Assembly: GCA_049968235.1 (NCBI GenBank)
Contig: JBMFRC010000035.1
Span: forward strand, 1-16,202
Reading direction: 5' to 3'
Length of the DNA: 16,202 nt
From: Candidatus Hydrogenedens sp.
Lineage (GTDB): Bacteria; Hydrogenedentota; Hydrogenedentia; Hydrogenedentales; Hydrogenedentaceae
Below are positions 1,692 through 15,949 of this stretch, piece after piece. The first letter of the stretch is position 1; each line of letters opens with the position of its first letter. The translations under genes were made by a program, and so were the position numbers. The notes beneath the pieces were generated by a model. The model was not told where the DNA came from. It saw nothing but the letters and a program-made list of their open reading frames with translations, and searched no databases.

Positions 1692-2618
1692 TTACGATTT
1701 TTTACGAATTATCATGGATACAACTTGCAGGGTATTCACATTTTTTTCTTGATTATCTATAATCAAAGGTTTTGTTCCATACTCCTTTAATACTTCAAAG
1801 CATAAATCAATATTATCCGTTAATATATAATCAACTCCTGCATCTACTAATTTTTTTATTATTTCCGGGTCCTGAGCACTAAAAAAATTTACCTTTATTC
1901 CATGTTGATGGGCTAATTCTACATCTTCTTTAAGATTATCCAATCCCTGTGTAAAACTAATTTGAACATAAGAAACCTGTAGTCTTATGCCCCTTTCTAT
2001 AAAATCCCGTCTTTTTTCTAATTTTTCAGGGATTAAACAAATTTTCATCTCGGGAACTTTATTACGAACTACTTCTACTTGTTTTTCATTATTACAAGCA
2101 ATAAAACATCGCCCTATTTGTCCTGTTTCTTTTAATGTTTTTGCTACTACTTCTGTGGCAAATTCATCCCCATAAACATGAACATTACATAGAATACCAT
2201 AAGGAATTGTATTTATTACTTCATATAAGGATGGAATTTTTGTACCTATAAATGAATTGCCGAACCATTTTCCGGCATCCAGTTTATATATTTCTTCACT
2301 GAGTAAATCCTGAACCTTACCCTTTCCATTTGTGGTCCTGTCGACTTTTTCATCATGCATAATTATTAGATGTCCATCTTTAGTCATTCGTACATCAAAC
2401 TCAATCATATGTACCCCCTTTTTTACTGCAGATTGAAATGCAGGTAAGGTATTTTCAGGTGCATTCTTTACATCTCCCCTATGTGCGCAAACATAAGTTT
2501 CCCCAGCACCTATATTTGAAACTAAAATTAGAAGAAGTTCCAAAACAACAAGAGAACTAACTTTTATTTGCTTTATTAAACATCTTAATAATACGTGGTA
2601 CATTTTCCAATGCCTCAT
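1692..2618 (-). CDS. glycerophosphodiester phosphodiesterase (GlpQ/UgpQ family), probably secreted
   Basis: Shows the GDPD hallmarks CAHRGD...APENTLPAF...MIEFDVRMTKDGHLIIMHDEKVDRTTNGKG. The maximal ORF runs to 2654. The more likely start is Met at 2618 or 2603 (GAGG about 10 nt upstream of 2603), which gives an n-region plus hydrophobic LVVLELLLILVSNIGAG signal-peptide-like N-terminus. It overlaps the alaS 3' end. Confidence 0.8.
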   Translation of the reverse strand: MRHWKMYHVLLRCLIKQIKVSSLVVLELLLILVSNIGAGETYVCAHRGDVKNAPENTLPAFQSAVKKGVHMIEFDVRMTKDGHLIIMHDEKVDRTTNGKGKVQDLLSEEIYKLDAGKWFGNSFIGTKIPSLYEVINTIPYGILCNVHVYGDEFATEVVAKTLKETGQIGRCFIACNNEKQVEVVRNKVPEMKICLIPEKLEKRRDFIERGIRLQVSYVQISFTQGLDNLKEDVELAHQHGIKVNFFSAQDPEIIKKLVDAGVDYILTDNIDLCFEVLKEYGTKPLIIDNQEKNVNTLQVVSMIIRKKS

Positions 2619-5205
2619 TAAATTTCTCAATATCTTTTCCTCCCGCCTGAGCAAAATCTTTCCTTCCGCCTCCTTTTCCTCCTACAATTTGTGCTAACTG
2701 GTTAACTATATCAGAAGAACTAAACTTATCAATTAAATCCTTTGTAACTCCTACACAGAAAGTGGCCTTATCTTCATATTTTATCCCTACAACTACAATT
2801 CCAGATTTAATCTTATCTTTCAAATGGTCTACAAGTGTTCGTGCCTGATTAATATCTTCATTTTCCAATACTAATGTTATAAAATTAACACCATCAATGG
2901 ATTTCACATTTTTCGACAAATCTTTCCCTTCACCTAACAATGCCTGTCGTTTCCATTTTTCTAATTCTTTATAGAGTTTTCTATTTTCTTCAATTATTTG
3001 TAATATTCGTTCTTGTAATCCTTCCGGAGATGAATTTATAGTTTCCGAAATTTCTTTTATCATTCGTTCTGTTTTCTGTATCCAATTGATAAAAGGTTCC
3101 CCGCATATAGCTTCAATTCTACGAACCCCAGCGGATACGGAGGATTCTGACAGAATCTTAAAACCACCTATAACGCCAGTTTGAGAAACATGACATCCTC
3201 CACAAAATTCGGTACTAATACCGTCAATTTTAACTACTCGCACTATGTCTCCATATTTTTCCCCAAATAAAGCCATAGCCCCTAATTTTCTGGCTTCATC
3301 TATGGGAAGATATAAAATCTCAACATTGTAATCTTCTCTAATTTTTTCATTAACCCATTTTTCAATATCCAAAATACGGTCATAACCTACTGCCTCAAAA
3401 TGGGTAAAATCGAAACGCAATCTTTCTTCAGAAACCAGAGAACCACATTGATGAACATGTTCACCTAAAATATCGCGAAGTGCGGATTGAAGTAAATGAG
3501 TTGCGGTATGGTGGTTTTGAATAGTGAGCCTTCTTTTATAGTCAATGATGGCATTGATATCTTCACCTGTTTTAAACTGTCCATTAACTACTTTCACATA
3601 GTGGACAAACAGTTTATCTAATATTTTTTTTGTATCTGTTACTTCCGCAAGTGTTTTCCCATCCAATCCTGACAGAATACCTATATCACCTACCTGACCA
3701 CCACTTTCAGCATAAAAAGGAGTTTTATTTAGAATAATCCATCCTTCTTCTCCTTCTTTTAATTCTTCTATAATATTACTTTCCTTTACAATGGCTATAA
3801 TTTTACAAACCGCTGTATTTTGTTCATAACCTATAAATTCTGTTTCACCGTATTGGGCTAAAATCTGGTGATACACAGGGGATATTTCCTGTTGACCACT
3901 TCCTACCCATGTTTTCCGGTTAAATTCTCTTTGTTTCTCTTTCGCTTTTATGTATCCATCTTCATCTAATTCAAAACCTTTCTCTTCAGCCATATCCTTC
4001 ACTATATCAAGAGGAAAACCGTATGTGTCATGTAGTTTAAAAAGAATATCTCCCGGTATAAGTTTTTCCCCTTTACTAATCATATCTTCAAAAAGTTCTT
4101 TCAATATATCCATACCACGAGATAAAGTACTACCGAACCGCTCTTCTTCAAGATTTATAATTTTTTCAATTTGTGTCTGTGTTTCTAACAATTCCGGATA
4201 ATATTTACCCATATTTTGTATTACGACTTTTGAAATTTGATGTAAAAATGGTTTAACCAGTCCAATTTCTCTACCAAATCGTGAAGCCCGTCTTAATATT
4301 CTTCTCCAAACATATCCCCTTCCCTCATTTGCGGGTAAAATCCCGTCAGCAGTCATGAAGGATAATGCTCGAATATGGTCTGCTATAACGCGGAAAGGAA
4401 TAGGATTTTCTTGATAAGAACATGTAGCAATTTCCTGAGTAATTTCTATGATTGGAAACAAAACATCGGTATCAAAAACAGTTGTCTTATTTTGTAGTAA
4501 TAAGCACATTCTTTCTAATCCCATTCCTGTATCAATTCCCCGATTTTTTAACGGTAACCGTGTTCCATCCACCTGCTGGTCATATTGGGGAAAAACCAGA
4601 TTCCAGAATTCTAAAAAACGCTCATGGGGGTCATTTTCAGGCGTAGCATTAGGGTCAATGTCCTCACCTTTATCAAAAAGAAGTTCAGAACAAGGTCCAC
4701 AGGCACCTGAATCCCCCGCAGGTCCCCAAAAATTGTCCTTTGCTCCCAAACGAACTATTCTTTTTTCAGGTACTCCAATCTCTTTATTCCATATATCAAA
4801 AGCCTCATCATCTTCTTCATAGACCGATACCCATATTTGTTCCGGTTTTATTTTCATAACTTGTGTTGAATATTCCCATGCCCATTGTATAGCCTCTCTT
4901 TTAAAGTAATCACCAAAAGAAAAATTCCCGAGCATTTCAAAAAAGGTTAAATGACGGGATGTCTTCCCTACTTCCTCTAAATCATTGGCTTTCCCTCCTG
5001 CTCTTAAGCATTTCTGAACTGTTGAAGCCCTCCGATATGGAACAGGAACTTCCCCTGTATAATAAGGTTTAAATTGAACCATTCCTGCACTGGTAAAGAG
5101 CAGTGTTGGGTCATTTTTGGGAATTAATGTATCACTTTTTTCGATAACATGACCTCTGTTTCTGAAAAAATCTAAAAAACTCTCACGAATTTCATAACTT
5201 TTCAC
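2557..5205 (-). CDS. alaS: alanine--tRNA ligase (alanyl-tRNA synthetase), 882 aa, GTG start
   Basis: N-terminus MKSYEIRESFLDFFRNRGHVIEKSDTLIPKNDPTLLFTSAGMVQFKP, class II catalytic core, editing domain (HHTATHLL...CGGCHV) and C-terminal DHHA1-like tail. The start codon is GTG, with GGAGAAA 6 nt upstream. Confidence 0.97.
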   Translation of the reverse strand: MKSYEIRESFLDFFRNRGHVIEKSDTLIPKNDPTLLFTSAGMVQFKPYYTGEVPVPYRRASTVQKCLRAGGKANDLEEVGKTSRHLTFFEMLGNFSFGDYFKREAIQWAWEYSTQVMKIKPEQIWVSVYEEDDEAFDIWNKEIGVPEKRIVRLGAKDNFWGPAGDSGACGPCSELLFDKGEDIDPNATPENDPHERFLEFWNLVFPQYDQQVDGTRLPLKNRGIDTGMGLERMCLLLQNKTTVFDTDVLFPIIEITQEIATCSYQENPIPFRVIADHIRALSFMTADGILPANEGRGYVWRRILRRASRFGREIGLVKPFLHQISKVVIQNMGKYYPELLETQTQIEKIINLEEERFGSTLSRGMDILKELFEDMISKGEKLIPGDILFKLHDTYGFPLDIVKDMAEEKGFELDEDGYIKAKEKQREFNRKTWVGSGQQEISPVYHQILAQYGETEFIGYEQNTAVCKIIAIVKESNIIEELKEGEEGWIILNKTPFYAESGGQVGDIGILSGLDGKTLAEVTDTKKILDKLFVHYVKVVNGQFKTGEDINAIIDYKRRLTIQNHHTATHLLQSALRDILGEHVHQCGSLVSEERLRFDFTHFEAVGYDRILDIEKWVNEKIREDYNVEILYLPIDEARKLGAMALFGEKYGDIVRVVKIDGISTEFCGGCHVSQTGVIGGFKILSESSVSAGVRRIEAICGEPFINWIQKTERMIKEISETINSSPEGLQERILQIIEENRKLYKELEKWKRQALLGEGKDLSKNVKSIDGVNFITLVLENEDINQARTLVDHLKDKIKSGIVVVGIKYEDKATFCVGVTKDLIDKFSSSDIVNQLAQIVGGKGGGRKDFAQAGGKDIEKFNEALENVPRIIKMFNKANKS

Positions 5206-5257
5206 AATGATTTCTCCATTTGATATTAAAGGGTTACATAATGAGGTATATAGATTT

Positions 5258-5291
5258 TATCAAATTATTTATAAACATTTACAGATGACAA
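5258..5291 (-). promoter_or_regulatory. candidate sigma70-type promoter for alaS (TTGTCA-N17-ATAATT/TATAAAT)
   Basis: Minus-strand sequence TTGTCAtctgtaaatgtttataaATAATT lies immediately downstream of the terminator of the preceding gene and about 55 nt upstream of the alaS GTG. Confidence 0.3.
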
Positions 5292-5300
5292 CTTGTTTGT

Positions 5301-5336
5301 AAAAAAGAAGAGAGAACAACATTATGTCCTCTCTTC
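5301..5336 (-). terminator. rho-independent terminator of the riboswitch-controlled gene
   Basis: On the minus strand: GAAGAGAG-(14-nt loop)-CTCTCTTC followed by TTTTTTAC. It lies 30 nt after the stop codon of the 5367..6698 gene. Confidence 0.6.
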
Positions 5337-5366
5337 GATATTTTTATTATCAATTCTTGAAAATAA

Positions 5367-6698
5367 CTACAATATTGATACACTCCTCTTCAGTCTATAA
5401 AAGGCTAATAGCGACAATGAAAGAATCATTATTATAAGAAATATAGGTTTATATAAAGGCAATCTATTTTCTGTAACGATAATATGAACAGTATAGATGG
5501 CTTTTTCATTTCCGTAACTACATATATATGTCCCTGTATCTTCAGGTTGTGCATTATAAATTAATAACTTTTTACAATGTATTCCTGAAATTCTGGGATT
5601 TGTGCTTATATCACCATTTATTTTACTCCATGTAAATTGTGTTCCTTCGGGAACTATTTCACCAAAAATATCAAGACAGACATCCTCACCAGAACGATAA
5701 ATAGATTTTCTAACGGAATTACAATCTGGACACTCTTCCTGTTCTGTTCTTAAGATGAGGTATCCCCTGTTATTTACTATTGCCAATATTGTATCTGAAT
5801 ATGGATTATAAAAAGCAGAATAATATCCCTGATTATTTGCGGGGTCCCAAACACGAACGATTTCACCTGTGGATGGATTTATTTCTTGTATTCCGCCCGG
5901 AAGCATAAAGCCTTCTGAACCAGCAACAATCAGGAGATTATCATTGCTTATTCCAGATACTCCACCTGTGAAATAAACCCCGGATGTCCCAACCGGTATT
6001 CCATCTATATTCCAATCAAGTGTAGTGTGAGTATTATATGCGTTGACTAAAGAGGATATTGAAAATTTACGTATTTCACGAGCATTACCATCCATTATAT
6101 AAACCCAAGTATCATCTTTTGCTAACGTAGCAGAATAGGCAAAGGGTGGCTTATCTATAACCATATCTTTGTTGAGTGATTTAGGTTTCATTAAAACAAA
6201 ATGGGAAATATTTTCATTTTTTTCATTTAGTGGTAAAATATGGATTTCACTTCCTGAAAAATCAGATTTTGTGACATCGAGTAGTAACAGGTCTGATGTT
6301 AAATAAATACCATAATAATGACTGATATTTGCAATAATAGACAATGGTGTAAAGTTCTGTGGATTTGTTAAATCAAGGAGATATATATCTCCTAAATATC
6401 CCTGTCCTAATATTGCTTTTTTTTCATCCGGACTAATTGCAACAAAAGCAGGGTCTCCTTGATAGCCTTCTGCAATCAAGAAATAATTGTCATTTTTGGG
6501 AGCAATCTGTTTATAGACCTGATTCCCATTCCAGATTAAAAAAGTGCCATCACTGAGAGGAGCAGAAGTAACAAAATATGAACCGGATGCAGGTTGTGGA
6601 ATATTAGGCAAAGGAATTACTGTTTCAGCCATAGCACTTAAAACTAATAAAAGGGAACTAAGAACAAAAACAGATTTAGCATAATTATAGAGAAACAT
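5367..6698 (-). CDS. uncharacterised secreted, membrane-anchored protein with beta-rich (propeller-like) repeats and a C-terminal Ig-like domain; cobalamin-riboswitch controlled
   Basis: N-terminal signal peptide MFLYNYAKSVFVLSSLLLVLSAMA|ETV. Body rich in G/Y/N/T beta-strand repeats. Ig-type signature near the C-terminus (FTWSK...NAQPEDTGTYICSY...YTVHIIV). Terminal TM helix plus basic tail (PIFLIIMILSLSLLAFYRLKRSVSIL). Strong SD GAAGGAGGA 7 nt upstream of the ATG. Confidence 0.8.
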   Translation of the reverse strand: MFLYNYAKSVFVLSSLLLVLSAMAETVIPLPNIPQPASGSYFVTSAPLSDGTFLIWNGNQVYKQIAPKNDNYFLIAEGYQGDPAFVAISPDEKKAILGQGYLGDIYLLDLTNPQNFTPLSIIANISHYYGIYLTSDLLLLDVTKSDFSGSEIHILPLNEKNENISHFVLMKPKSLNKDMVIDKPPFAYSATLAKDDTWVYIMDGNAREIRKFSISSLVNAYNTHTTLDWNIDGIPVGTSGVYFTGGVSGISNDNLLIVAGSEGFMLPGGIQEINPSTGEIVRVWDPANNQGYYSAFYNPYSDTILAIVNNRGYLILRTEQEECPDCNSVRKSIYRSGEDVCLDIFGEIVPEGTQFTWSKINGDISTNPRISGIHCKKLLIYNAQPEDTGTYICSYGNEKAIYTVHIIVTENRLPLYKPIFLIIMILSLSLLAFYRLKRSVSIL

Positions 6699-6765
6699 AA
6701 TTTTCCTCCTTCTGAGTTTAAATTTAATTCTTTTTTTTCGTTCATTTGTTAAAAAGGGAGGAAAA
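6699..6765 (-). promoter_or_regulatory. riboswitch expression platform: anti-SD (UUUUCCUCCCUUUUU, 6751..6765) able to pair with the SD (AGAAGGAGGAAAAUU, 6699..6713)
   Basis: About 10 nt of direct complementarity between the two elements, which are separated by about 40 nt. This is the typical translational OFF-switch arrangement of B12 riboswitches. Confidence 0.55.
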
Positions 6766-6842
6766 GTAGGCAGGTAAGGCTTTCACAGAAGGAGAAATGC
6801 CATCCTGCAACAACCTTTCCGCGAGTTGTTACAGTCACATTT

Positions 6843-6989
6843 CCTGACCAATGCAGGTCTTCTGGCTTCCGGTTCATCCTACTTATCACGCCTTCCCGTT
6901 ATTACAGTGGCTTTTTGTGACTTTCGTACCCGGTTACAGCAGCGCGTCTGCGACGGACTTTCACCGTGCTTCCCTATACATCAGTCAGG
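6843..6989 (-). promoter_or_regulatory. cobalamin (AdoCbl/B12) riboswitch aptamer
   Basis: Minus-strand RNA: CCUGACUGAUG UAUAGGGAAGCACGGUGAAAGUCCGUCGCAGACGCGCUGCUGUAACCGGG...AAGCCACUGUAAUAACGGGAAGGCGUG...GGAAGCCAGAAGACCUGC AUUGGUCAGG. The conserved AGGGAA, GGUGnAAnUCC, GCnGnnCnCUGUAA, GCCACUG and GGGAAGGC elements are all present. The B12-box consensus rAGYCMGgAgaCCkGCc is matched by AAGCCAGAAGACCUGCA. An 11-bp P1 helix (CCUGACUGAUG/CAUUGGUCAGG) closes the aptamer. The region is GC-rich (about 50%) against a 30% background. Confidence 0.9.
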
Positions 6990-7030
6990 TTCCTTAATTT
7001 TCACCTCCTTTCCATAAGTTGTTTATGAAT

Positions 7031-8129
<1,099 letters not shown>

Positions 8130-8140
8130 TCAATATCCTT

Positions 8141-8599
8141 TTATTCATTTTTACATTCCACTGATATATATACAGGGTAATCATCCAGACTTAGTTCAAC
8201 AAAATCTGCATCTTGTCTTATCTTTTCCCATTGTTCTTCATTAATTTCCTCTGCTGAAGGAGGCTGAAGTTCAAATACAGGTTCTGTCCCGGCTAATGAA
8301 GTTAAAAAATTTCCACAAAAAATATTTAAAAACTCACAAAGAGCATCTTTAGGTTCTACTTCTATATCCGTTTCTTCTTCATCAATACCTAAAACATTAC
8401 TCATCATTTCTCTGCACAATTCCTCCGGAGTTACAATGATGGCATTGCCTTTATACGGACCGGAAAAAGACATTTCAGCCTTGATATAGGGTGGCATTGC
8501 ATCCTGTTGCTCAGACCAATCATCTGCAAACATAAAAGCAAACTCTTTTGCCACATCAGTTAATACCTTTTTAATTAATTCTTTGTCCATTTCATTCAT
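8141..8599 (-). CDS. acidic CheC/CheX-family phosphatase-like protein (divergent CheX paralog)
   Basis: 152 aa, very acidic. The segment ALCEFLNIFCGNFL matches the CheX active-site region AVGELANMISGNAK (E-x2-N...GN). It overlaps the preceding cheY by 8 nt, which suggests translational coupling. Confidence 0.5.
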   Translation of the reverse strand: MNEMDKELIKKVLTDVAKEFAFMFADDWSEQQDAMPPYIKAEMSFSGPYKGNAIIVTPEELCREMMSNVLGIDEEETDIEVEPKDALCEFLNIFCGNFLTSLAGTEPVFELQPPSAEEINEEQWEKIRQDADFVELSLDDYPVYISVECKNE

Positions 8600-8981
8600 T
8601 TCCAGATACTCCCAAAAGTTCTATAACCAAATTTTTTAACGATTCCGGTGTGAACGGTTTTCTAAGGTACGCTTTAACTCCTTTCGATTTCAATTCTTCA
8701 ACACGTGTTTGACTTCCTTCTGTGGATACAATGGCGATAGGAATGGTCTTTAAAAGTTCATCCTGATTCATCTCATTTATCAACTCAACTCCATTCATAA
8801 CGGGCATGTTAATATCCGTTAAAACAAGGTCAACCCAATTACTTCGCAGTATATCCAATGCTTCCTTCCCATTACTTGCATGGAGAATATTTCCTATTTC
8901 CACACCAGACAATCGCAAGGTCTTTTCCATCACGGCTCGCACTGTTGTTGAATCATCAACAATCAAAATATTGATACTCAT
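8592..8981 (-). CDS. cheY: CheY-like single-domain response regulator
   Basis: ILIVDDSTTVRAV...LVLTDINMPVMNG...KAYLRKPF: receiver domain with the conserved Asp pocket and the phospho-acceptor Asp in LTD. A 4-nt ATGA overlap with the upstream HDOD gene. Confidence 0.9.
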   Translation of the reverse strand: MSINILIVDDSTTVRAVMEKTLRLSGVEIGNILHASNGKEALDILRSNWVDLVLTDINMPVMNGVELINEMNQDELLKTIPIAIVSTEGSQTRVEELKSKGVKAYLRKPFTPESLKNLVIELLGVSGNE

Positions 8982-9838
8982 GTAATTTCTCCTGATTTTA
9001 AATTGTCCAGAAATGCTTCTATCTCCCCAATTAATTTAGATAGAACAACTTCCACAATTTGCATATCTATTTTCAATCGTTCTATAGAATGGATATTATT
9101 TGAATAATTTAAACCGTCTATTCCAGAACCAATGCCACATTCCAGACATAAATTACTTGCAATATGGATAAAATCAGCAACCAGACGATATTCTTCCGGA
9201 GCATTATCCGGCTCATGGTGATATAAGACAGGTTGAACTAAGTTATTGGGGAAATGCCACTCCTGCATTAATAAAGCGCCTACCTCCGAGTGGTCAATAC
9301 CTAAAATTTCTTTCTCTGCTTTTTCAAAAGATAGTTTCTCATCGTATGCCTTTTTTACTATAGGTTCCGCATCTATTTCTACAAAGGTTCCCAACACTAT
9401 TTTACCAATATCATGGAGTAATCCTACCGTAAAAGTATAAGGAGGAATATCTATTTTTAATTCTTTTCCCAGTAATTCACTGGCTATTGCAGTTCCTATT
9501 AAATGTTTTATTAGTTCTCCTGCAGGTAAGTCATATCCTCGAAGTGGTTTTACAACCGTCGGGAAAATTGTCGATGCAATAATCATCTGCTGAATTCTGT
9601 TTATCCCTAATAATACAACTGCCTCACGGACAGTACTTATTTTTTTAGGACCCGCAAAATATGCTGAATTGGCTAACTTTAATATATTTGCAGTTAATGT
9701 CGGGTCCATTTCCAATTCTTTAGATATATCTAATATTGGGGATTCTTTATTGTTTATCTTGCTTAAAATACGAGCAGTATTTGCAGGGAAAGCAGGTACT
9801 TCTTTAATTTTTTCTATAATTTTCTCTCGTATAGTCAT
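8978..9838 (-). CDS. HDOD domain protein (HD-related output domain)
   Basis: PAFPANTARILSKINNKESPILDISKELEMDPTLTANILKLANSAYFAG...LLGINRI...LLHDIGKIVL: the canonical HDOD N-terminal motif string. 286 aa with no other domain. Confidence 0.85.
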   Translation of the reverse strand: MTIREKIIEKIKEVPAFPANTARILSKINNKESPILDISKELEMDPTLTANILKLANSAYFAGPKKISTVREAVVLLGINRIQQMIIASTIFPTVVKPLRGYDLPAGELIKHLIGTAIASELLGKELKIDIPPYTFTVGLLHDIGKIVLGTFVEIDAEPIVKKAYDEKLSFEKAEKEILGIDHSEVGALLMQEWHFPNNLVQPVLYHHEPDNAPEEYRLVADFIHIASNLCLECGIGSGIDGLNYSNNIHSIERLKIDMQIVEVVLSKLIGEIEAFLDNLKSGEIT

Positions 9839-9852
9839 TCTATTTTTTCCTA

Positions 9853-10329
9853 TTACAATTCATATTCTTTCCCGGCACTTTTAATTGTTGTTTTACCATC
9901 ATTAATATATAAATACATCGTTCTCGCTAATGTTCCACCAATATCTTCTGATGAAATTAGTATATTATTTTTCCAGAGGAGTTTTCTCACTACAATGTGA
10001 TTTCTTTCCCCGATTCGGAACATTTCGTTATCATCTAACAGAACAGCACCACCAGCAACTTTAGCTATCATTCTTTTTTTATCTGCACCCATATTAATTA
10101 GTGTTTGCATCATTAGTGGCAAACCTGTATCTACAAACATGTATGGGGCTTCTCTGGCTCGTTCAGGGTCAACCTTCGATAAAGGTAACATGCAGTGAAT
10201 AAGTCCACCTATCTTCTGGAGTGGGTCATATAAAACAACACCTACACATGAACCCAAAGAATATGTAACTAACACATCCTCCGGATTACTTGAAACTTTC
10301 ATATCCGATATATTTACAGTAATTAACAC
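9853..10329 (-). CDS. cheD: chemoreceptor glutamine deamidase CheD (paralog 2)
   Basis: The LGSCVGVVLYDP...GGLIHCMLP motif region is typical of CheD, and the size is about 158 aa. Confidence 0.85.
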   Translation of the reverse strand: MLITVNISDMKVSSNPEDVLVTYSLGSCVGVVLYDPLQKIGGLIHCMLPLSKVDPERAREAPYMFVDTGLPLMMQTLINMGADKKRMIAKVAGGAVLLDDNEMFRIGERNHIVVRKLLWKNNILISSEDIGGTLARTMYLYINDGKTTIKSAGKEYEL

Positions 10330-10356
10330 CTTATAACACCTTTAATATTTTCTAAT

Positions 10357-11160
10357 CTATGGTTTATAGTAAATGGAAGGTTTTACTATTCGGAAACCCG
10401 TTTGTATCGAGGTAATACTTTCGGAATGTCCAACGAATAAATATCCTTTGGGTTTAAGAAGACGGTATATTTCATTGACCAGCATATTTCTAACTTTTTC
10501 ATCGAAGTATATCATCACATTCCTGCAAAATATTATATCAAAGGGTCCCTTCATAGGATAGGGAGTTTCTATTAAATTTAACCTCGAAAACGTAATTAAT
10601 TTTTTAATCCTATCTGACACCACGTATACCCAGTCATTCCCAACTTTCTTTTTTTCAAAATACTTCTGTAGTAAATATCCCGGAATATTCTCTACTTTAT
10701 GCGAATAGTATTCCCCCTTTTTAGATTGCTCTAATACTCGCGTCGATATGTCCGTGGCAAGAATTTTTAAATCTACAAAGGAACTATTAAGGGCTTCCAT
10801 AGCAGTAATGGCAATAGTATAAGGTTCCTCACCTGTGGAACAAGCAGATGACCATATTCTAAATTTTGTTTGCCCTTCTTCCTTCCATTCCATTAACTTC
10901 TCTTTTAAAAATTCAAAATGGTCGCTTTCCCGGAAAAAATGTGTCACATTCGTTGATATATAATCAATCAGTTTTATAATTTCCTGTCCTGATTTATCGT
11001 TTATTACATACTCGTAATAATCCTTAAAATCATTAATTCCTAAAGTGCGAATCCTTTTTGAAAGCCTCCCAACTACAAGTGCTTTTTTCTGGTCACTTAG
11101 ATGAATACCACTAGTTTCATATATCAATTGTCGAAATCTGTTGAATAAATTATTATCCAT
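10357..11160 (-). CDS. cheR: chemotaxis protein methyltransferase CheR
   Basis: N-terminal CheR helical domain (FRQLIYETSGIHLSDQKKALVVGRLSKRIR) and the SAM-binding fold motif IWSSACSTGEEPYTIAI...DIIFCRNVMIYFD. Confidence 0.95.
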   Translation of the reverse strand: MDNNLFNRFRQLIYETSGIHLSDQKKALVVGRLSKRIRTLGINDFKDYYEYVINDKSGQEIIKLIDYISTNVTHFFRESDHFEFLKEKLMEWKEEGQTKFRIWSSACSTGEEPYTIAITAMEALNSSFVDLKILATDISTRVLEQSKKGEYYSHKVENIPGYLLQKYFEKKKVGNDWVYVVSDRIKKLITFSRLNLIETPYPMKGPFDIIFCRNVMIYFDEKVRNMLVNEIYRLLKPKGYLFVGHSESITSIQTGFRIVKPSIYYKP

Positions 11161-11169
11161 ATACGCTCT

Positions 11170-11679
11170 CTATTCTTCAGGTAATTCTAAAATCCAATCT
11201 TCTTTTCGTATTTGATAAACTTTTAAGACAATAATATGACCTGTATAACTATTAAAAACGATTTTTCTGCCCATATTTCCTCCAACATCTTCTGATACAA
11301 TCTTTATACCTTTACTTTTCAATATTTTCCGGGCAACTTCCACATTATCTTTACCAATATCTTTGCTTTTACTATTAAAAGGAGGAACTGCACCTCCTAC
11401 GATTTGGGCAAAAATGGAATTTGTTCTGGCGCCTGCCTTTTCCATCATTTGTATTAGTTGAAGTGTTGCCACATTACCATATTGGGAAGTGGCTTTATCT
11501 TTTGATGATACACTGGGATAAAGAAAATGGTTCATTCCCCCTATCTTTAATTTTTTATCCCATAGACAAACAGATACACATGACCCCAGAACAGCATACA
11601 AATTTGTGGGAACAGTGGGAAGATAGATATACCCCGGTTCAATAAATACCTGCTGATACGATGTCAATTCTTTTGACAT
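11170..11679 (-). CDS. cheD: chemoreceptor glutamine deamidase CheD (paralog 1)
   Basis: LYAVLGSCVSVCLWD...GGMNHFLYP and the C-terminal GGNMGRKIVF region. CheD family, 169 aa. Confidence 0.85.
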   Translation of the reverse strand: MSKELTSYQQVFIEPGYIYLPTVPTNLYAVLGSCVSVCLWDKKLKIGGMNHFLYPSVSSKDKATSQYGNVATLQLIQMMEKAGARTNSIFAQIVGGAVPPFNSKSKDIGKDNVEVARKILKSKGIKIVSEDVGGNMGRKIVFNSYTGHIIVLKVYQIRKEDWILELPEE

Positions 11680-11695
11680 TTATTTTCTCGTTTTA

Positions 11696-12067
11696 CTATT
11701 GACCTTTACTTTTGTTTAACACTTCTTGAATTTTCCCAACGATAGTGTTAGGTTCAAAAGGTTTAATTACATAATTCGTTGCACCTGCTTTTAATGCTTC
11801 TAATACTCTGCTTTTTTCCGCTTCGGTTGTAACCATAATAATCGGCATTGTTTTACCCATTTCACGGATTGCTTTTAATGCATCAATTCCCAACATATTG
11901 GGCATATTCCAATCCATTAAAATAATATCATAGTCGTTTTGTTGAACAGCCTGTACTGCTTCTGCTCCATCCGCCGCCTGGTCAACCTCGTTTATATTTG
12001 CTCTACCTAATGCTCCAATCAATACTTTTCTCATTACTGCAGAATCATCAACAACCAATGCCCTCAT
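11696..12067 (-). CDS. cheY: chemotaxis response regulator CheY
   Basis: MRALVVDDSAVMRKVL...DIILMDWNMPNMLGIDAL...NYVIKPF. Classic CheY, 123 aa. Confidence 0.95.
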   Translation of the reverse strand: MRALVVDDSAVMRKVLIGALGRANINEVDQAADGAEAVQAVQQNDYDIILMDWNMPNMLGIDALKAIREMGKTMPIIMVTTEAEKSRVLEALKAGATNYVIKPFEPNTIVGKIQEVLNKSKGQ

Positions 12068-12083
12068 TATTTACACCTCTTTC

Positions 12084-12551
12084 CTATTTTTCTGGTTCAA
12101 ATGTGACCCGTAGCGTAAACGGACCTAATTCACTATCAAAGTTTATTTCTATCCATACAGAATTTGTAGGATAATCTACTGAAAAGTCTCCACCACGAAC
12201 TACTGTGGGTAAACTTAAATCCAAAGGCTTCTCATCACCTGTATTTAATCTCGCTTTTGCTCCTCCTGCAACGATATTCACCATCTCAGCAATAGCATCA
12301 GATACGGTATCATCCATAATCTTTATATCTGCATTTAGCAATTTATTTACCATAGCAAGAGCAGTAGAAACAGGAAAAGCAAGGGCAACCATTCCACGTA
12401 CCCTTCCACTAATCCCAATTAACGCCATTATGTCTCGCGGATTGGCTGATTTTGCTATTCCTACATTTTTTCGTTCCGCTTTTGCATTTAACATTGTTGT
12501 AAATAAATCATATACACTTTCTATAAACGGATTGATATGTTCAGCCTTCAT
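12084..12551 (-). CDS. cheX: CheY-P phosphatase CheX
   Basis: 155 aa. INPFIESVYDLFTTML N-terminus, AEMVNIVAGGAK active-site motif (E-x2-N) and a C-terminal beta region. It resembles spirochaete/Thermotoga CheX. Confidence 0.8.
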   Translation of the reverse strand: MKAEHINPFIESVYDLFTTMLNAKAERKNVGIAKSANPRDIMALIGISGRVRGMVALAFPVSTALAMVNKLLNADIKIMDDTVSDAIAEMVNIVAGGAKARLNTGDEKPLDLSLPTVVRGGDFSVDYPTNSVWIEINFDSELGPFTLRVTFEPEK

Positions 12552-12588
12552 AATACTCCTGTACCTTTTTATTTATTTCTATTTAATT

Positions 12589-13092
12589 TCAAAGAGAACT
12601 CAAACTTTGTATTTCATTGGCGGTTAATACTTTATCTATATCCAAAAGTATAACCACCGCTTCGCCTAATTTTCCCATCGCCATAATAAATGCAGTATCA
12701 ATACTTGCTCCAAAAGAAGGAGCAGGTTCTATTTGATTCTCTGCTATATCTACAACCTCTGAAACTTCATCTACGATTATACCCATAGTTATAGGACCAA
12801 CATTTCCCATAACTTGAACAACAATTATACAGGTATGGTCCGTATCTTCTACGGTTTCCATATCAAATTTCTTACGAAGTTCAATAACAGGAATTACTTT
12901 ACCTCTTAGATTAATTACACCACGAACAAAATTAGGTGTTCTCGGGATAGAGGTAATACTCATCAGTCCAATTATTTCCTGTACCTTCAGTATCTCTATT
13001 CCATAGGTTTCATGAGACAACTTAAATGTGAGATACTTGCCTGCTAATGATTTTAACTCGTGCTTGCTTGTGGTTTTTTCTTGTTCTGTCAT
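12589..13092 (-). CDS. cheW: chemotaxis coupling protein CheW
   Basis: KYLTFKLSHETYGIEILKVQEIIGL...VRGVINLRGKVIPVIELRKKF. CheW fold, 167 aa. Confidence 0.95.
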   Translation of the reverse strand: MTEQEKTTSKHELKSLAGKYLTFKLSHETYGIEILKVQEIIGLMSITSIPRTPNFVRGVINLRGKVIPVIELRKKFDMETVEDTDHTCIIVVQVMGNVGPITMGIIVDEVSEVVDIAENQIEPAPSFGASIDTAFIMAMGKLGEAVVILLDIDKVLTANEIQSLSSL

Positions 13093-13141
13093 GGCTATGT
13101 TCCTTTTGTTACATTCTATTTATTTTACACAATTTATATAC

Positions 13142-15949
13142 CTATACAAAAGTAGTGGATTCTTCTGCTAATTTTAGTATTCCTGCAATATCTAAAATTA
13201 GACCTACTTTACCATCCGGCATAATAGCTCCCCCTGCAATTCCCGGTACACCCTTTAAGGCTTCTCCCAAAGATTTAATTACAATTTGCTGTTGACCCAA
13301 TATCTCATCTACTAACAAACCCACCTGAGAATTGCCCGTTTCTACGACCACAATAGTTCCTTCCGTATATTCTTCAACAGCATTGGGAATATTAAATAAT
13401 TTATTTAATCTGTATAAATTTATTAGTTTTCCATGGAACGATAAAACTTCGCCTTTTCCAACTACAGTATTTATCTCTTTTTTTGTCGGTCTTAATGATA
13501 TTATAATAGACAATGTCGGGATAATATATCTTTCCATTCCCACGCGAACAACCATTCCATCAATAATTGCCAATGTTAAGGGTAATCGTATTGTAAACAC
13601 AGTCCCTTTTCCCGGTGTAGATTGAATTTCCACATGCCCTCTTAAAGCCTCTATATTCTTCTTTACCACATCCATACCTACACCGCGACCGGATACCTCT
13701 GTTACAACCTTTGCTGTAGAAAAGCCCGGTTCAAATATAAGATTCCATACTTCACGATCTGATAGACCTTCCTCAGAACGAATTAGCCCTCGTTCTATTG
13801 CCTTTTTTATAATGGCTTCTCGATTAAGCCCTGCTCCATCATCTTCAACTTGTATATGTATATTTCCGCCAGCATGATATGCCCTGAGATATATATTCCC
13901 TATAGGCGGTTTTCCATGTTTAATTCGTTCCTCCGGATTACTTTCAATTCCGTGGTCCACCGAATTGCGAACCATATGAACAAGCGGGTCTCCTATTTTA
14001 TCAACCACAGTCTTATCTAATTCCGTATCTTCTCCACTGGTATGAAATTCAATCAACTTCCCCGTTTTTTTGGATAAATCGCGAACCAGCCGTGCCATTT
14101 TTTGAAATGTGCTTTTTATCGGTATCATCCGAAGAGACATCGCCATAAGTTGTAATTCTCTTGTTATCTTATCCAATTGCCCCATATATCTCGACAAATC
14201 CGTATACAAATCCCCATTTATTTCTACCTCTCTTGCAACCATAGATTCAGCAATAACTAACTCACCAATCATATCCACAAGTTGGTCTAATCGATTGGCA
14301 TCTACTTTTATTGCTTCCGCTACACTTGCTTGAGGTGCTAATGATTGTGCCCGTTGTGTGCGAAGTGCCTGAACGACTTCTTTCGCATTAGCTTCTCCAG
14401 TCTGAACCAGCAATTCTCCCAATTTCGGAGGTTCCTGGGATTGCTTCTGTTTTTCTATTGCATTTTGAATTTCCTCCTCCGTAGCAAAACCCAATTCTAC
14501 TACAATTTCTCCTATAAGTTTGTTCGGGAATTCAGTTTTTTGTAATTCCAATACCTTTTCTAATTGCTTTGAAGATATAACATTATATTTAACTAATATT
14601 TCTCCCACTGCTACAGGTTCTGTTGGACTTTTCTGTAATATTAGGGCTCGCTTTACACTATCTTCAGATATAGATTCAGAACCTACCATTATCTCGCCCA
14701 ATCGGGATATATTTTTCCCCGGTTTTTCACGAAATATTGTCGTTACCTTTTTACCTTGCAAAACCCGATGAATATTCTCAATCAATTCTCCCGAGTTTTC
14801 TTGCGGAATTACAGGTTCCCCTGTGGTCAACGCTTTTCGAACAGCATTTACACACTCCTTCAATGTATCTACCGCTTCAAAGACAACATCAATAGCATTA
14901 CCCACAAGTAACATTTCTTTTTTTCTTGCACGGTCTAATAAATTTTCCGCTTCGTGCGATATCTGTTTAATCTCGTCTAATCCTAAAAAACCTGACACTC
15001 CTTTAATTGTATGAAAGGCTCGAAACACCGCATTTATTGCATCCTTATCTTCCGGGTCTGTTTCCAGAGTAAGCAAGTGGACATCACAGTTATCTAAATG
15101 TTCTGTTGCTTCTTGAATAAAATCTTTCACTAAATCAAGGTCACCTTCTAAAACTTTTGGTTCGAATTTCTTCGTCTCTGCTACTTGTTGTTCTGTTTTT
15201 TCTCCCGCATCTTTTCTACTCTCCTTTGCCAATTTCTTCCTTAATTCATTAGGAAACAGAGGCATAGGTCCCTTCCCGGCAATAGCATCAAATTTCTTTT
15301 TCAACCAGTCTTTTAATGTAAACAAATCATCGACCAATTCTTGAGTTACCCCCTGTTCAATTCGGTCTTCTGCTAAATGACATAAGTCCTGAATATCATT
15401 TAACCCTAAAATCCCCGTTTCTCCTTTTAATGTATGAATCTTCCTCTTCAATTCTGCAATTACTTCCTGTTTATCCCCATCTTCTTTATAACTCAATAAC
15501 AACGCTTCCATTTCTTCCAGATTAGAATCCTGAGATTGAATAAACTGTTGGAATATTTCTGGGTCAACATTTTCTGGCAACTCAAATACCTGCCCCGAAC
15601 CTTGAACTATGATATTCTCTATTCTCTTTTGTTGCAATTCATTCGGATAAATTACTTCAGATTCACTGACTCCGGCTACAATTAACTGCTGTATGGAACT
15701 GATGACTTGAGATAAAGTTTTCAAGGCTTCATCAGGGTTGGACATTTCCTGTAAAACAATCTTTTCTATCCAATCCGCACTATTATCCGCAACTATAGCC
15801 GTTCTAAGAAAACCCTGCGAATTTGCCCATTCCCGTATCTCGATAAGACAGGTATGCATTTGTGCCAATTCCTGTAAATCTCCAGGACTTACAAATACCG
15901 CCAATTCACTTAATTTCTCTATTGTCTTCTGAATTTCTATTTCCACCAT
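13142..15949 (-). CDS. cheA: chemotaxis histidine kinase CheA, atypical: two Hpt (HxxKG) domains and four MshEN-like 24-aa motifs in place of a P2 domain
   Basis: Hpt motifs IHTLKGETGILGL and AFHTIKGVSGFLGL. P3 dimerisation region (IKVDANRLDQLVDMIGELVIAES). HATPase N/G1/F/G2 boxes (HMVRNSVDHGIE, VEDDGAGLN, FEPGFST, GRGVGMDVV). C-terminal CheW-like P5 domain. SD GGAGA 8 nt upstream of the ATG. Confidence 0.97.
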   Translation of the reverse strand: MVEIEIQKTIEKLSELAVFVSPGDLQELAQMHTCLIEIREWANSQGFLRTAIVADNSADWIEKIVLQEMSNPDEALKTLSQVISSIQQLIVAGVSESEVIYPNELQQKRIENIIVQGSGQVFELPENVDPEIFQQFIQSQDSNLEEMEALLLSYKEDGDKQEVIAELKRKIHTLKGETGILGLNDIQDLCHLAEDRIEQGVTQELVDDLFTLKDWLKKKFDAIAGKGPMPLFPNELRKKLAKESRKDAGEKTEQQVAETKKFEPKVLEGDLDLVKDFIQEATEHLDNCDVHLLTLETDPEDKDAINAVFRAFHTIKGVSGFLGLDEIKQISHEAENLLDRARKKEMLLVGNAIDVVFEAVDTLKECVNAVRKALTTGEPVIPQENSGELIENIHRVLQGKKVTTIFREKPGKNISRLGEIMVGSESISEDSVKRALILQKSPTEPVAVGEILVKYNVISSKQLEKVLELQKTEFPNKLIGEIVVELGFATEEEIQNAIEKQKQSQEPPKLGELLVQTGEANAKEVVQALRTQRAQSLAPQASVAEAIKVDANRLDQLVDMIGELVIAESMVAREVEINGDLYTDLSRYMGQLDKITRELQLMAMSLRMIPIKSTFQKMARLVRDLSKKTGKLIEFHTSGEDTELDKTVVDKIGDPLVHMVRNSVDHGIESNPEERIKHGKPPIGNIYLRAYHAGGNIHIQVEDDGAGLNREAIIKKAIERGLIRSEEGLSDREVWNLIFEPGFSTAKVVTEVSGRGVGMDVVKKNIEALRGHVEIQSTPGKGTVFTIRLPLTLAIIDGMVVRVGMERYIIPTLSIIISLRPTKKEINTVVGKGEVLSFHGKLINLYRLNKLFNIPNAVEEYTEGTIVVVETGNSQVGLLVDEILGQQQIVIKSLGEALKGVPGIAGGAIMPDGKVGLILDIAGILKLAEESTTFV

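Follow-up and report, generated by a model that had tools for sequence, protein, structure and literature searches.

The closest described counterparts of the protein considered here are found in the vitamin B12 (cobalamin) uptake systems of Bacteroides. BtuG is a B12-binding lipoprotein of the cell surface (PDB 8BMX, 8BMY, 8BN0 and 8BLW chain B), and it is the BtuG propeller itself that binds B12. Domains of the BtuH type occur in Bacteroides alone, on PKD/Ig stalks or fused to a BtuG propeller; in BtuH2, the Ig/PKD domains are spacers and not the B12 site. Among the 313 human gut species surveyed by Putnam et al., BtuH homologs were found only in Bacteroidetes and in three Firmicutes. The present analysis concerns a gene in a 16,202-nucleotide stretch of DNA from Candidatus Hydrogenedens sp. 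(contig JBMFRC010000035.1; the whole 16.2-kb stretch is called the window), which lies behind a cobalamin riboswitch and codes for a protein of 443 amino acids (aa). An earlier note on this DNA had proposed the protein as a surface corrinoid-capture protein of an undescribed type, by analogy with BtuG and BtuH. Here it is assigned to a previously undescribed family of predicted beta-propellers, a core member of a cobalamin-riboswitch regulon whose sole recognisable component is a BtuH-type domain. The pairing of riboswitch and propeller is probably part of a new vitamin B12 scavenging system.

Like BtuG, the window protein would be a surface-exported beta-propeller under a cobalamin riboswitch that represses when B12 is plentiful, and both are genetically coupled to a BtuH-type domain, which is fused to the propeller in BtuG1/BtuGH and encoded by the adjacent gene in 12 loci of the new family. 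However, BtuG has seven blades, whereas six are predicted for the window protein; the latter has no lipoprotein (SPII) signal or lipobox; and BtuG is encoded beside btuB, its complex partner, while no btuB is adjacent here. Because of these differences, and because the family profile gives no match to BtuG, the window protein is not a BtuG. The same kinds of parts as in Bacteroides (propeller, Ig stalk and BtuH domain) are here spread over one to three genes.

A similar comparison can be made for BtuH (7BIZ). The B12-binding domain encoded right after the propeller gene in the 12 riboswitch-led units is homologous to it, and the Ig-like module of the window protein apparently has the same role as the Ig/PKD stalk of BtuH2. 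Unlike BtuH, the window protein itself has no BtuH domain (it matches neither 7BIZ nor 8BLW), and its Ig-like module does not correspond to the B12 site of BtuH. BtuJ (DUF4465, PF14717) is likewise a riboswitch-repressed surface scavenger of corrinoids, also outside Bacteroidota, but it has an augmented beta-jellyroll fold. PF14717 was matched neither by the window protein (Pfam, E<=10) nor among 30 relatives (E<=1).

A propeller family behind cobalamin riboswitches

The riboswitch and the parts of the protein are located in the window as follows.

6835 to 6998, minus strand: cobalamin riboswitch aptamer (RF00174), full length (cmscan 94.5 bits, E 8e-23)
5367 to 6698, minus strand: open reading frame (ORF) of the riboswitch-controlled, putative surface protein, 443 aa, ATG start at 6698
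6627 to 6698, minus strand: Sec (SPI-type) signal peptide, aa 1-24, read from the sequence as MFLYNYAKSVFVLSSLLLVLSAMA followed by ET, with AXA-type cleavage between AMA and ET
5751 to 6623, minus strand: predicted six-bladed beta-propeller, aa 26-316, the conserved core of the family
5469 to 5711, minus strand: predicted Ig-like beta-sandwich module, about aa 330-410, with Cys341, Cys393 and the motif DTGTYICSY
5370 to 5453, minus strand: C-terminal tail, consisting of LPLYKP, a hydrophobic stretch of 16 residues (aa 418-433) and YRLKRSVSIL

The match to RF00174 covers model positions 1-189 without truncation and lies far above the gathering score of 31.5 bits. The 443-aa ORF is the next gene 3' of the riboswitch and the sole gene before a terminator, so that the arrangement described in the earlier note is found as stated. 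Gene contexts were examined for homologs across the identity range, drawn from GTDB species genomes and metagenomes and including two very distant members, and all of these loci (numbered L001 and so on) were scanned with Rfam. In 42 of 44 informative loci, the window and 41 others, the family gene is directly preceded by an RF00174 riboswitch on the same strand; a further four were uninformative, as their contigs extend less than 270 nt upstream. Clustering reduces the 42 riboswitch-linked loci to 40 at an identity of 95%, to 34 at 70% and to 10 at 50%, and the association is kept in unrelated gene neighbourhoods. Two paralogs of one metagenome-assembled genome (MAG; L026 and L029) each have their own riboswitch, and the propellers of L037 and L038, which are about 24-30% identical to those of Hydrogenedentota and about 25% identical to the window protein, lie behind riboswitches scoring 124 and 120 bits. 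The association of riboswitch and propeller is as tight as those which define classical members of the B12 regulon, and the link drawn in the earlier note between this riboswitch and this gene is thereby extended to the homologs.

The closest database proteins are orthologs with 54-83% identity in Candidatus Hydrogenedens MAGs. A word-indexed search identified 32 relatives and a profile search 51, and all named ones came from Hydrogenedentes/Hydrogenedentota MAGs. In an exhaustive search of 1.84 billion cluster representatives with a hidden Markov model (HMM), 261 clusters (counted at 50% identity) were obtained at E<=1e-3; with the cutoff at E<=1e-30, there were 69. One distant member carries the annotation Planctomycetota. 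A word-indexed search with an alignment of distant members returned six proteins, and a metagenome search with a three-sequence distant alignment gave no confirmed locus. Several MAGs labelled Nitrospirales/Nitrospiraceae also carry the family, which is otherwise typical of Hydrogenedentota, together with the same riboswitch leader (L019, L021, L022, L024, L030 and L034). These occurrences may reflect mislabelled bins or a wider distribution of the family.

For the family, for the riboswitch module and for BtuH domains in these phyla, no published description was found, and for the family no solved relative was found either. Pfam gave only sub-threshold Ig matches for the window protein and no NHL/SGL match above the gathering score, and NCBIfam gave no match. 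The family profile found nothing among PDB sequences at E<=10, and a search with the single propeller sequence was likewise empty. Among 30 relatives compared with Pfam, a few showed matches to NHL, Kelch or PQQ repeats (E 0.015-0.14), with NHL in 3 of the 30 at a best E of 0.015. The view of the earlier note that the protein is of a previously undescribed type agrees with these searches.

The beta-rich repetitive body noticed earlier folds as a six-bladed beta-propeller in an AlphaFold2 (AF2) model built from a 55-sequence alignment, with a predicted local distance difference test score (pLDDT) of 87 and a predicted template modelling score (pTM) of 0.72; the single-sequence model (pLDDT 43) was discarded. 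Judged by this model, the conserved residues would sit for the most part in two sets of blade loops, D-A and B-C, which share one face of the propeller. Conservation throughout the family is confined to the propeller. Other members consist of a signal peptide, a propeller and a tail, of two tandem propellers, or of a propeller with other C-terminal extensions.

A hydrophobic N-terminal segment is present in all family members. In the window protein no Cys occurs within the first 30 residues, and since the cleavage site is of the AXA type and the lipobox Cys is missing, the signal is not that of a lipoprotein; the cleavable signal peptide assigned earlier is retained. The Ig-like module gave a match to Pfam Ig_3 (E 7.9e-5, 23.5 bits) below the gathering score of 30 bits, and one to Ig_2 which is also below its gathering score; the Ig hits span aa 334-400, and orthologs carry precomputed Ig_3 and Ig_2 matches. 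Against PDB sequences, weak matches to animal Ig domains (contactin, neurofascin) were obtained, and in the AF2 model the module is a beta-sandwich with a pLDDT of about 85-94. The Ig-like domain of the earlier note is thus predicted here too, with its DTGTYICSY motif, but it is confined to the Hydrogenedens-like clade and is not what the family conserves. It is probably a stalk or spacer. Between propeller and Ig-like module lies a CxxC motif, ECPDC (E-x-C-P-[DN]-C; aa 321-325, about 5723 to 5737, minus strand), which is conserved throughout the Hydrogenedens-like clade and could be a disulfide or a metal site.

The C-terminal tail had been taken for a single membrane anchor. The hydrophobic stretch is indeed present, but the tail may be a sorting signal instead of a permanent anchor, because close relatives have (V/L)PA-hydrophobic-RRxR tails, distant ones have canonical [IV]PEPA...RRR tails of the PEP-CTERM type, and it aligns with both. 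Its residue P414 is nearly invariant. Proteins with PEP-CTERM, IPTL-CTERM or MYXO-CTERM signals have comparable tails, in which a motif with Pro is followed by a short hydrophobic helix and a cluster of basic residues; weak IPTL-CTERM matches were identified in 5 of 30 relatives, and weak MYXO-CTERM matches also occur among the relatives. In contrast to the PEP-CTERM type, the tail of the window protein (LPLYKP...YRLKRSVSIL), though it has the helix and the basic cluster, contains no PEP motif, and it matched no sorting-signal HMM in Pfam or NCBIfam.

Partner genes and the BtuH-type domain

In 12 loci (L020, L021, L022, L034, L035, L037, L038, L040, L046, L047, L049 and L051), the riboswitch is followed by a three-gene unit, in which the propeller gene is accompanied by the gene for a secreted protein, designated family A, and by that for a prepilin-type N_methyl/DUF1559 protein. 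In about five other loci, a secreted CFI-box-CTERM protein (family B; NF041770, E about 1e-25) is encoded after the propeller. The partner genes are located as follows.

L035:7081-9264, L038:3392-4624 and L037:6051-7286: family A genes, with equivalents in the other nine three-gene loci
L035:9265-10128, L037:4146-4958 and L038:4632-5537: prepilin-type (N_methyl) DUF1559-like genes, present as fused ORFs in L020, L021, L022 and L034
L011:6324-7814, L028:2514-4145, L027:7793-9439 and L052:3507-6047: genes of the CFI-box-CTERM partner (family B)

Family A occurs in Hydrogenedentota and in one further lineage. It has no match in Pfam, and otherwise only a weak one to the LIC_13355-lipoprotein family. 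When compared with PDB sequences, however, a single family A sequence matched 7BIZ (E 2e-11) and 8BLW chain B (E 1e-16), which are BtuH2 bound to cyanocobalamin and BtuG1 of the BtuB1G1 complex, respectively. With a profile of nine family A sequences, the matches covered residues 267-490 of 7BIZ (E 7e-16) and residues 391-526 plus 612-659 of 8BLW_B (E 5.5e-21). By sequence comparison, family A is assigned a true homolog of the domain by which BtuH and BtuG1 bind B12. The alignment keeps counterparts of Asn399, Glu406, Asp522, Ser582 and Glu584, the residues making up the BtuH2 site for metal and phosphate. The numbering of the PDB chain is offset by 100 from the published one, consistently for Asn399/Phe401/Glu406, Tyr475/His476, Trp577 and Ser582/Glu584. 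The corrin-contacting His476 and Tyr510 of BtuH2 lie in a region which cannot be aligned to family A.

The DUF1559-like partner has a motif of the form ...H-F-R-H...W-x-D-G-H near its C-terminus and recurs in the cobalamin-riboswitch unit. For family B and for the gene downstream in L009, no PDB relatives were identified, and family B shows no further domain that could be recognised. Five loci contain propeller genes or domains in tandem, and L018, L031, L032 and L048 have a tandem duplication of the propeller only. In the clade of the window and in many other loci, the propeller is the sole gene behind the riboswitch. The earlier description of a lone gene therefore applies to the clade of the window; elsewhere, units of two or three genes are found. 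For corrinoid capture, the BtuH-domain protein in the riboswitch-led unit of 12 loci provides a link that is independent of the one drawn in the earlier note, while the Ig-like module, to which a comparison with BtuH had been attached there, is not the counterpart of the B12 site in BtuH.

Leader and gene neighbourhood

Between the aptamer and the start codon, and on either side of the riboswitch unit, the following features were identified (SD, Shine-Dalgarno).

7004 to 7012, minus strand: SD-like GAAAGGAGG box close to the aptamer on its 5' side, not followed by a start codon
6805 to 6834, minus strand: P13-like hairpin of the expression platform, CUGUAACAAC-UCGCGGAAAG-GUUGUUGCAG, from the minimum-free-energy fold
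6786 to 6798, minus strand: anti-SD box 1, AUUUCUCCUUCUG, best duplex partner of the SD region
6756 to 6774, minus strand: anti-SD box 2, CCUGCCUACUUUUCCUCCC, a conserved box in the leader alignment
6701 to 6714, minus strand: SD region CAGAAGGAGGAAAA, read from the sequence, 2 nt before the ATG at 6698
5299 to 5336, minus strand: intrinsic terminator with a 12-bp stem (5336 to 5307) followed by UUUUUU, at the end of the monocistronic unit
13142 to 15949, minus strand: cheA, in the upstream chemotaxis cluster
7047 to 8123, minus strand: cheB, at the riboswitch-proximal end of that cluster
2557 to 5205, minus strand: alaS, the downstream neighbour

The sequence and position of the P13-like hairpin are kept in 10 aligned leaders and in most other Hydrogenedentota leaders. 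Its loop CGCG is complementary to an invariant CGCG in the L5 region of the aptamer, which points to a kissing loop. The 10 aligned leaders also share the box CCUGCC-N-CUUUUCC(Y)C (6756 to 6774) and the SD, and the layout of hairpin, box and SD recurs in most of the other Hydrogenedentota leaders too. Within anti-SD box 2, CCUGCC and UUUUCC are invariant or almost so; in the minimum-free-energy fold of the window leader, its UUUUCCUCC is paired with GGAGGAAAA. The box covaries with the SD, CCUCC occurring with GGAGG and CCCC with GGGG. The duplex of AUUUCUCCUUCUG with the SD region has 12 bp and -18.5 kcal/mol (z -3.6 against shuffled leaders), and equivalent pairings gave z-scores of -5.2 in L003, -4.0 in L005 and -3.8 in L007. 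The SD is sequestered in the predicted folds of the leader. In L037 and L038, hairpins with a U-run, of the terminator type, follow directly after the aptamer in place of SD sequestration. Both arrangements would fit the usual OFF switch with expression at scarce B12, a polarity deduced from the predicted structures. The GAAAGGAGG box lies 5-25 nt upstream of the aptamer in the window, in L001, L003, L005 and L007, and in the distant L012, L014, L023 and L025. Since the leader's anti-SD boxes are complementary to it, it may be their partner and a putative anti-sequestor element.

All long ORFs of the window, the GC content of which is about 35%, are on the minus strand. A scan of 5000 to 7300 gave 1 terminator-like site where 0.9 were expected from shuffled sequences, which by itself is weak evidence. 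In the syntenic loci L001, L003 and L005, however, the hairpin is maintained by compensatory changes; the monocistronic layout is therefore real for the clade of the window, and the terminator of the earlier note holds on these grounds. Directly past it lies a promoter-like element (TTGTCA, 16 nt, AATAAT; 5264 to 5291, minus strand), which is conserved in L001, L003 and L005 and is presumably the promoter of alaS. Further downstream follow a GDPD-family gene and a 371-aa ORF without assigned function, according to the Pfam context of the syntenic locus L001. As stated earlier, no transporter is present in the 16.2-kb window; this includes TonB-dependent receptors, and no cob/cbi gene or B12-related enzyme is encoded in it either.

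The chemotaxis cluster (7047 to 15949, minus strand) contains duplicated cheD and cheX, a gene with an HDOD domain and, besides cheB, three genes for receiver-domain proteins (response regulators). Its end is separated from the riboswitch by 48 nt. Since no terminator is predicted between cheB and the aptamer, read-through from the cluster into the riboswitch unit is possible. An action of the riboswitch on the upstream che operon was dismissed, because the orientation is wrong and the unit of riboswitch and gene moves jointly into unrelated contexts. In L034, an Acido-Lenti-1 small RNA (RF01687, 50.4 bits) was identified at 8788-8833 on the minus strand, a few kb downstream of the riboswitch unit.

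Possible roles of the propeller

We consider it rather probable that the window protein is a B12-repressed surface module for the capture or hand-off of corrinoid, which works like BtuG. The evidence for this role is computational: a riboswitch that accompanies almost every member of the family, a signal for export, a fold obtained by prediction, and a BtuH-domain protein encoded in the same unit in 12 of the loci; from these we infer direct binding of corrinoid by the propeller, its exposure at the surface and the OFF polarity of the switch. At high intracellular cobalamin, the riboswitch would bind cobalamin, the leader would refold, and the ribosome-binding site would be masked by the anti-SD boxes; distant relatives would form a terminator in place of SD sequestration. 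When B12 is scarce, the protein would be made, exported by Sec, tethered or sorted by its C-terminus and displayed on the cell surface, where the Ig-like module would hold the propeller off the envelope. The propeller would then capture corrinoid, or take it from another protein and hand it on, in analogy to BtuG working with BtuH domains.

Several observations weigh against this role. The likeness to BtuG for which the earlier note proposed structure prediction and fold comparison as a check was not obtained: BtuG2 is structurally no closer to the window propeller than unrelated propellers are, and no BtuG sequence is found by the family profile. The six-bladed fold is a generic one, common to lactonases, lyases and NHL domains, and few polar residues are conserved across the widest family. 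A BtuH-like partner gene is absent from the locus in the clade of the window, and no TonB-dependent receptor or ABC transporter was identified in any of the riboswitch-led units examined. The z-score for SD sequestration has a median of -0.8 over 24 loci and is significant only in the low-GC clade, for which reason a translational mechanism is not claimed for the whole family. Finally, a two-domain paralog, P0018, is the only family member found without a riboswitch (L016:6001-8097 and L017:3529-5625). It consists of two propellers joined by a Gly/Glu/Pro-rich linker, is encoded among glycosyltransferase genes and flgM, and may have been recruited to a function outside B12 regulation.

The rival explanation that survives best, though we regard it as unlikely, holds that the propeller does not bind B12 but is an accessory of the same B12-repressed surface system, a scaffold or docking module. 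It would hold in position the BtuH-like binder, the pilin-like protein or else an outer-membrane transporter encoded at another locus. Propellers are often platforms for protein-protein interactions, as the NHL, WD40 and YWTD matches illustrate; the recognisable B12-binding domain resides in the partner protein and not in the propeller; and in the members that are most distant, polar residues show little conservation. However, it would be odd for a pure adaptor to be the sole gene behind the riboswitch, as it is in the clade of the window and at many other loci. The tandem duplications of the propeller alone suggest that it carries the primary activity, and BtuG provides the precedent of a propeller that binds B12. 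Partnership with BtuH, together with the propeller units that stand alone or in tandem, partly disfavours the scaffold and also disfavours the two rivals considered below.

Capture or hand-off by the propeller could be part of a larger scheme, to which we give a rather small chance. In it, a new corrinoid uptake route of Hydrogenedentota and Planctomycetota-like bacteria would be formed by three proteins together, namely the propeller, the one with the BtuH domain and the prepilin-type DUF1559 (H-X9-DG-like) one. Surface capture would be coupled to a pseudopilus or pilin-like periplasmic carrier, which would replace BtuB, a transporter of the TonB-dependent type, and the window protein would be the minimal, stand-alone capture module of this route.

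It is improbable that the propeller is a secreted or surface six-bladed hydrolase or lyase, of the SMP-30/PON lactonase, strictosidine synthase or PAL type, which would be needed at scarce B12, for example for the release or remodelling of corrinoids or of cobalt from environmental complexes. Propellers of the NHL, SMP-30 and strictosidine-synthase-like families share the six-bladed fold predicted here, but the identity to the window propeller is 9-14%, and for the enzymes among them this is no better than for the non-enzymatic NHL domains. A sequence-level match to an enzyme family was found neither for the window protein nor for 30 relatives (Pfam, NCBIfam). To our knowledge, none of these propeller families is B12-regulated, and we know of no extracellular corrinoid-processing enzyme with a six-bladed propeller fold. 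A B12-independent isozyme was dismissed as well, since the protein is exported and without an enzyme-family signature.

Slighter still is the chance of a B12-regulated adhesin or S-layer-type protein unrelated to uptake, made for attachment to B12-producing partners or for an altered cell surface under B12 starvation: PEP-CTERM-like and CFI-box-CTERM tails are characteristic of proteins of the surface or matrix, one of the partners is pilin-like, and the best Foldseek match (E 2.9e-10) is the archaeal S-layer YVTN propeller with PKD domain 1L0Q, a cell-surface protein in which, as here, an Ig-like domain comes after the propeller; but 1L0Q aligns with a TM-score of 0.38/0.42 and an identity of 12%, is archaeal and has no link to B12, and an adhesin would leave unexplained both the recurrent pairing with a BtuH-type B12-binding domain and the B12 riboswitch at nearly every member (42 of 44 loci).

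What is understood of B12 capture at the cell surface comes almost entirely from gut Bacteroidota, with BtuG, BtuH, BtuJ and BtuK. The regulon described here suggests that a comparable but differently built B12-capture system exists in uncultured environmental phyla. With it, the range of the BtuH B12-binding domain reaches far beyond Bacteroidota, and a family of about 260 clusters at 50% identity, so far unannotated, obtains its first link to a function. In addition, a defined nutrient is tied to one member of the DUF1559/prepilin proteins, a very large family to which no function has been given so far; this may be a first clue to what such a member does. Should the propeller bind corrinoids, propellers would have been adapted to B12 capture a second time and independently, and the family would offer a new, compact B12-binding scaffold. 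The finding may also help in predicting the B12 dependencies of anaerobic-digester and sediment communities, in which Hydrogenedentota are common.

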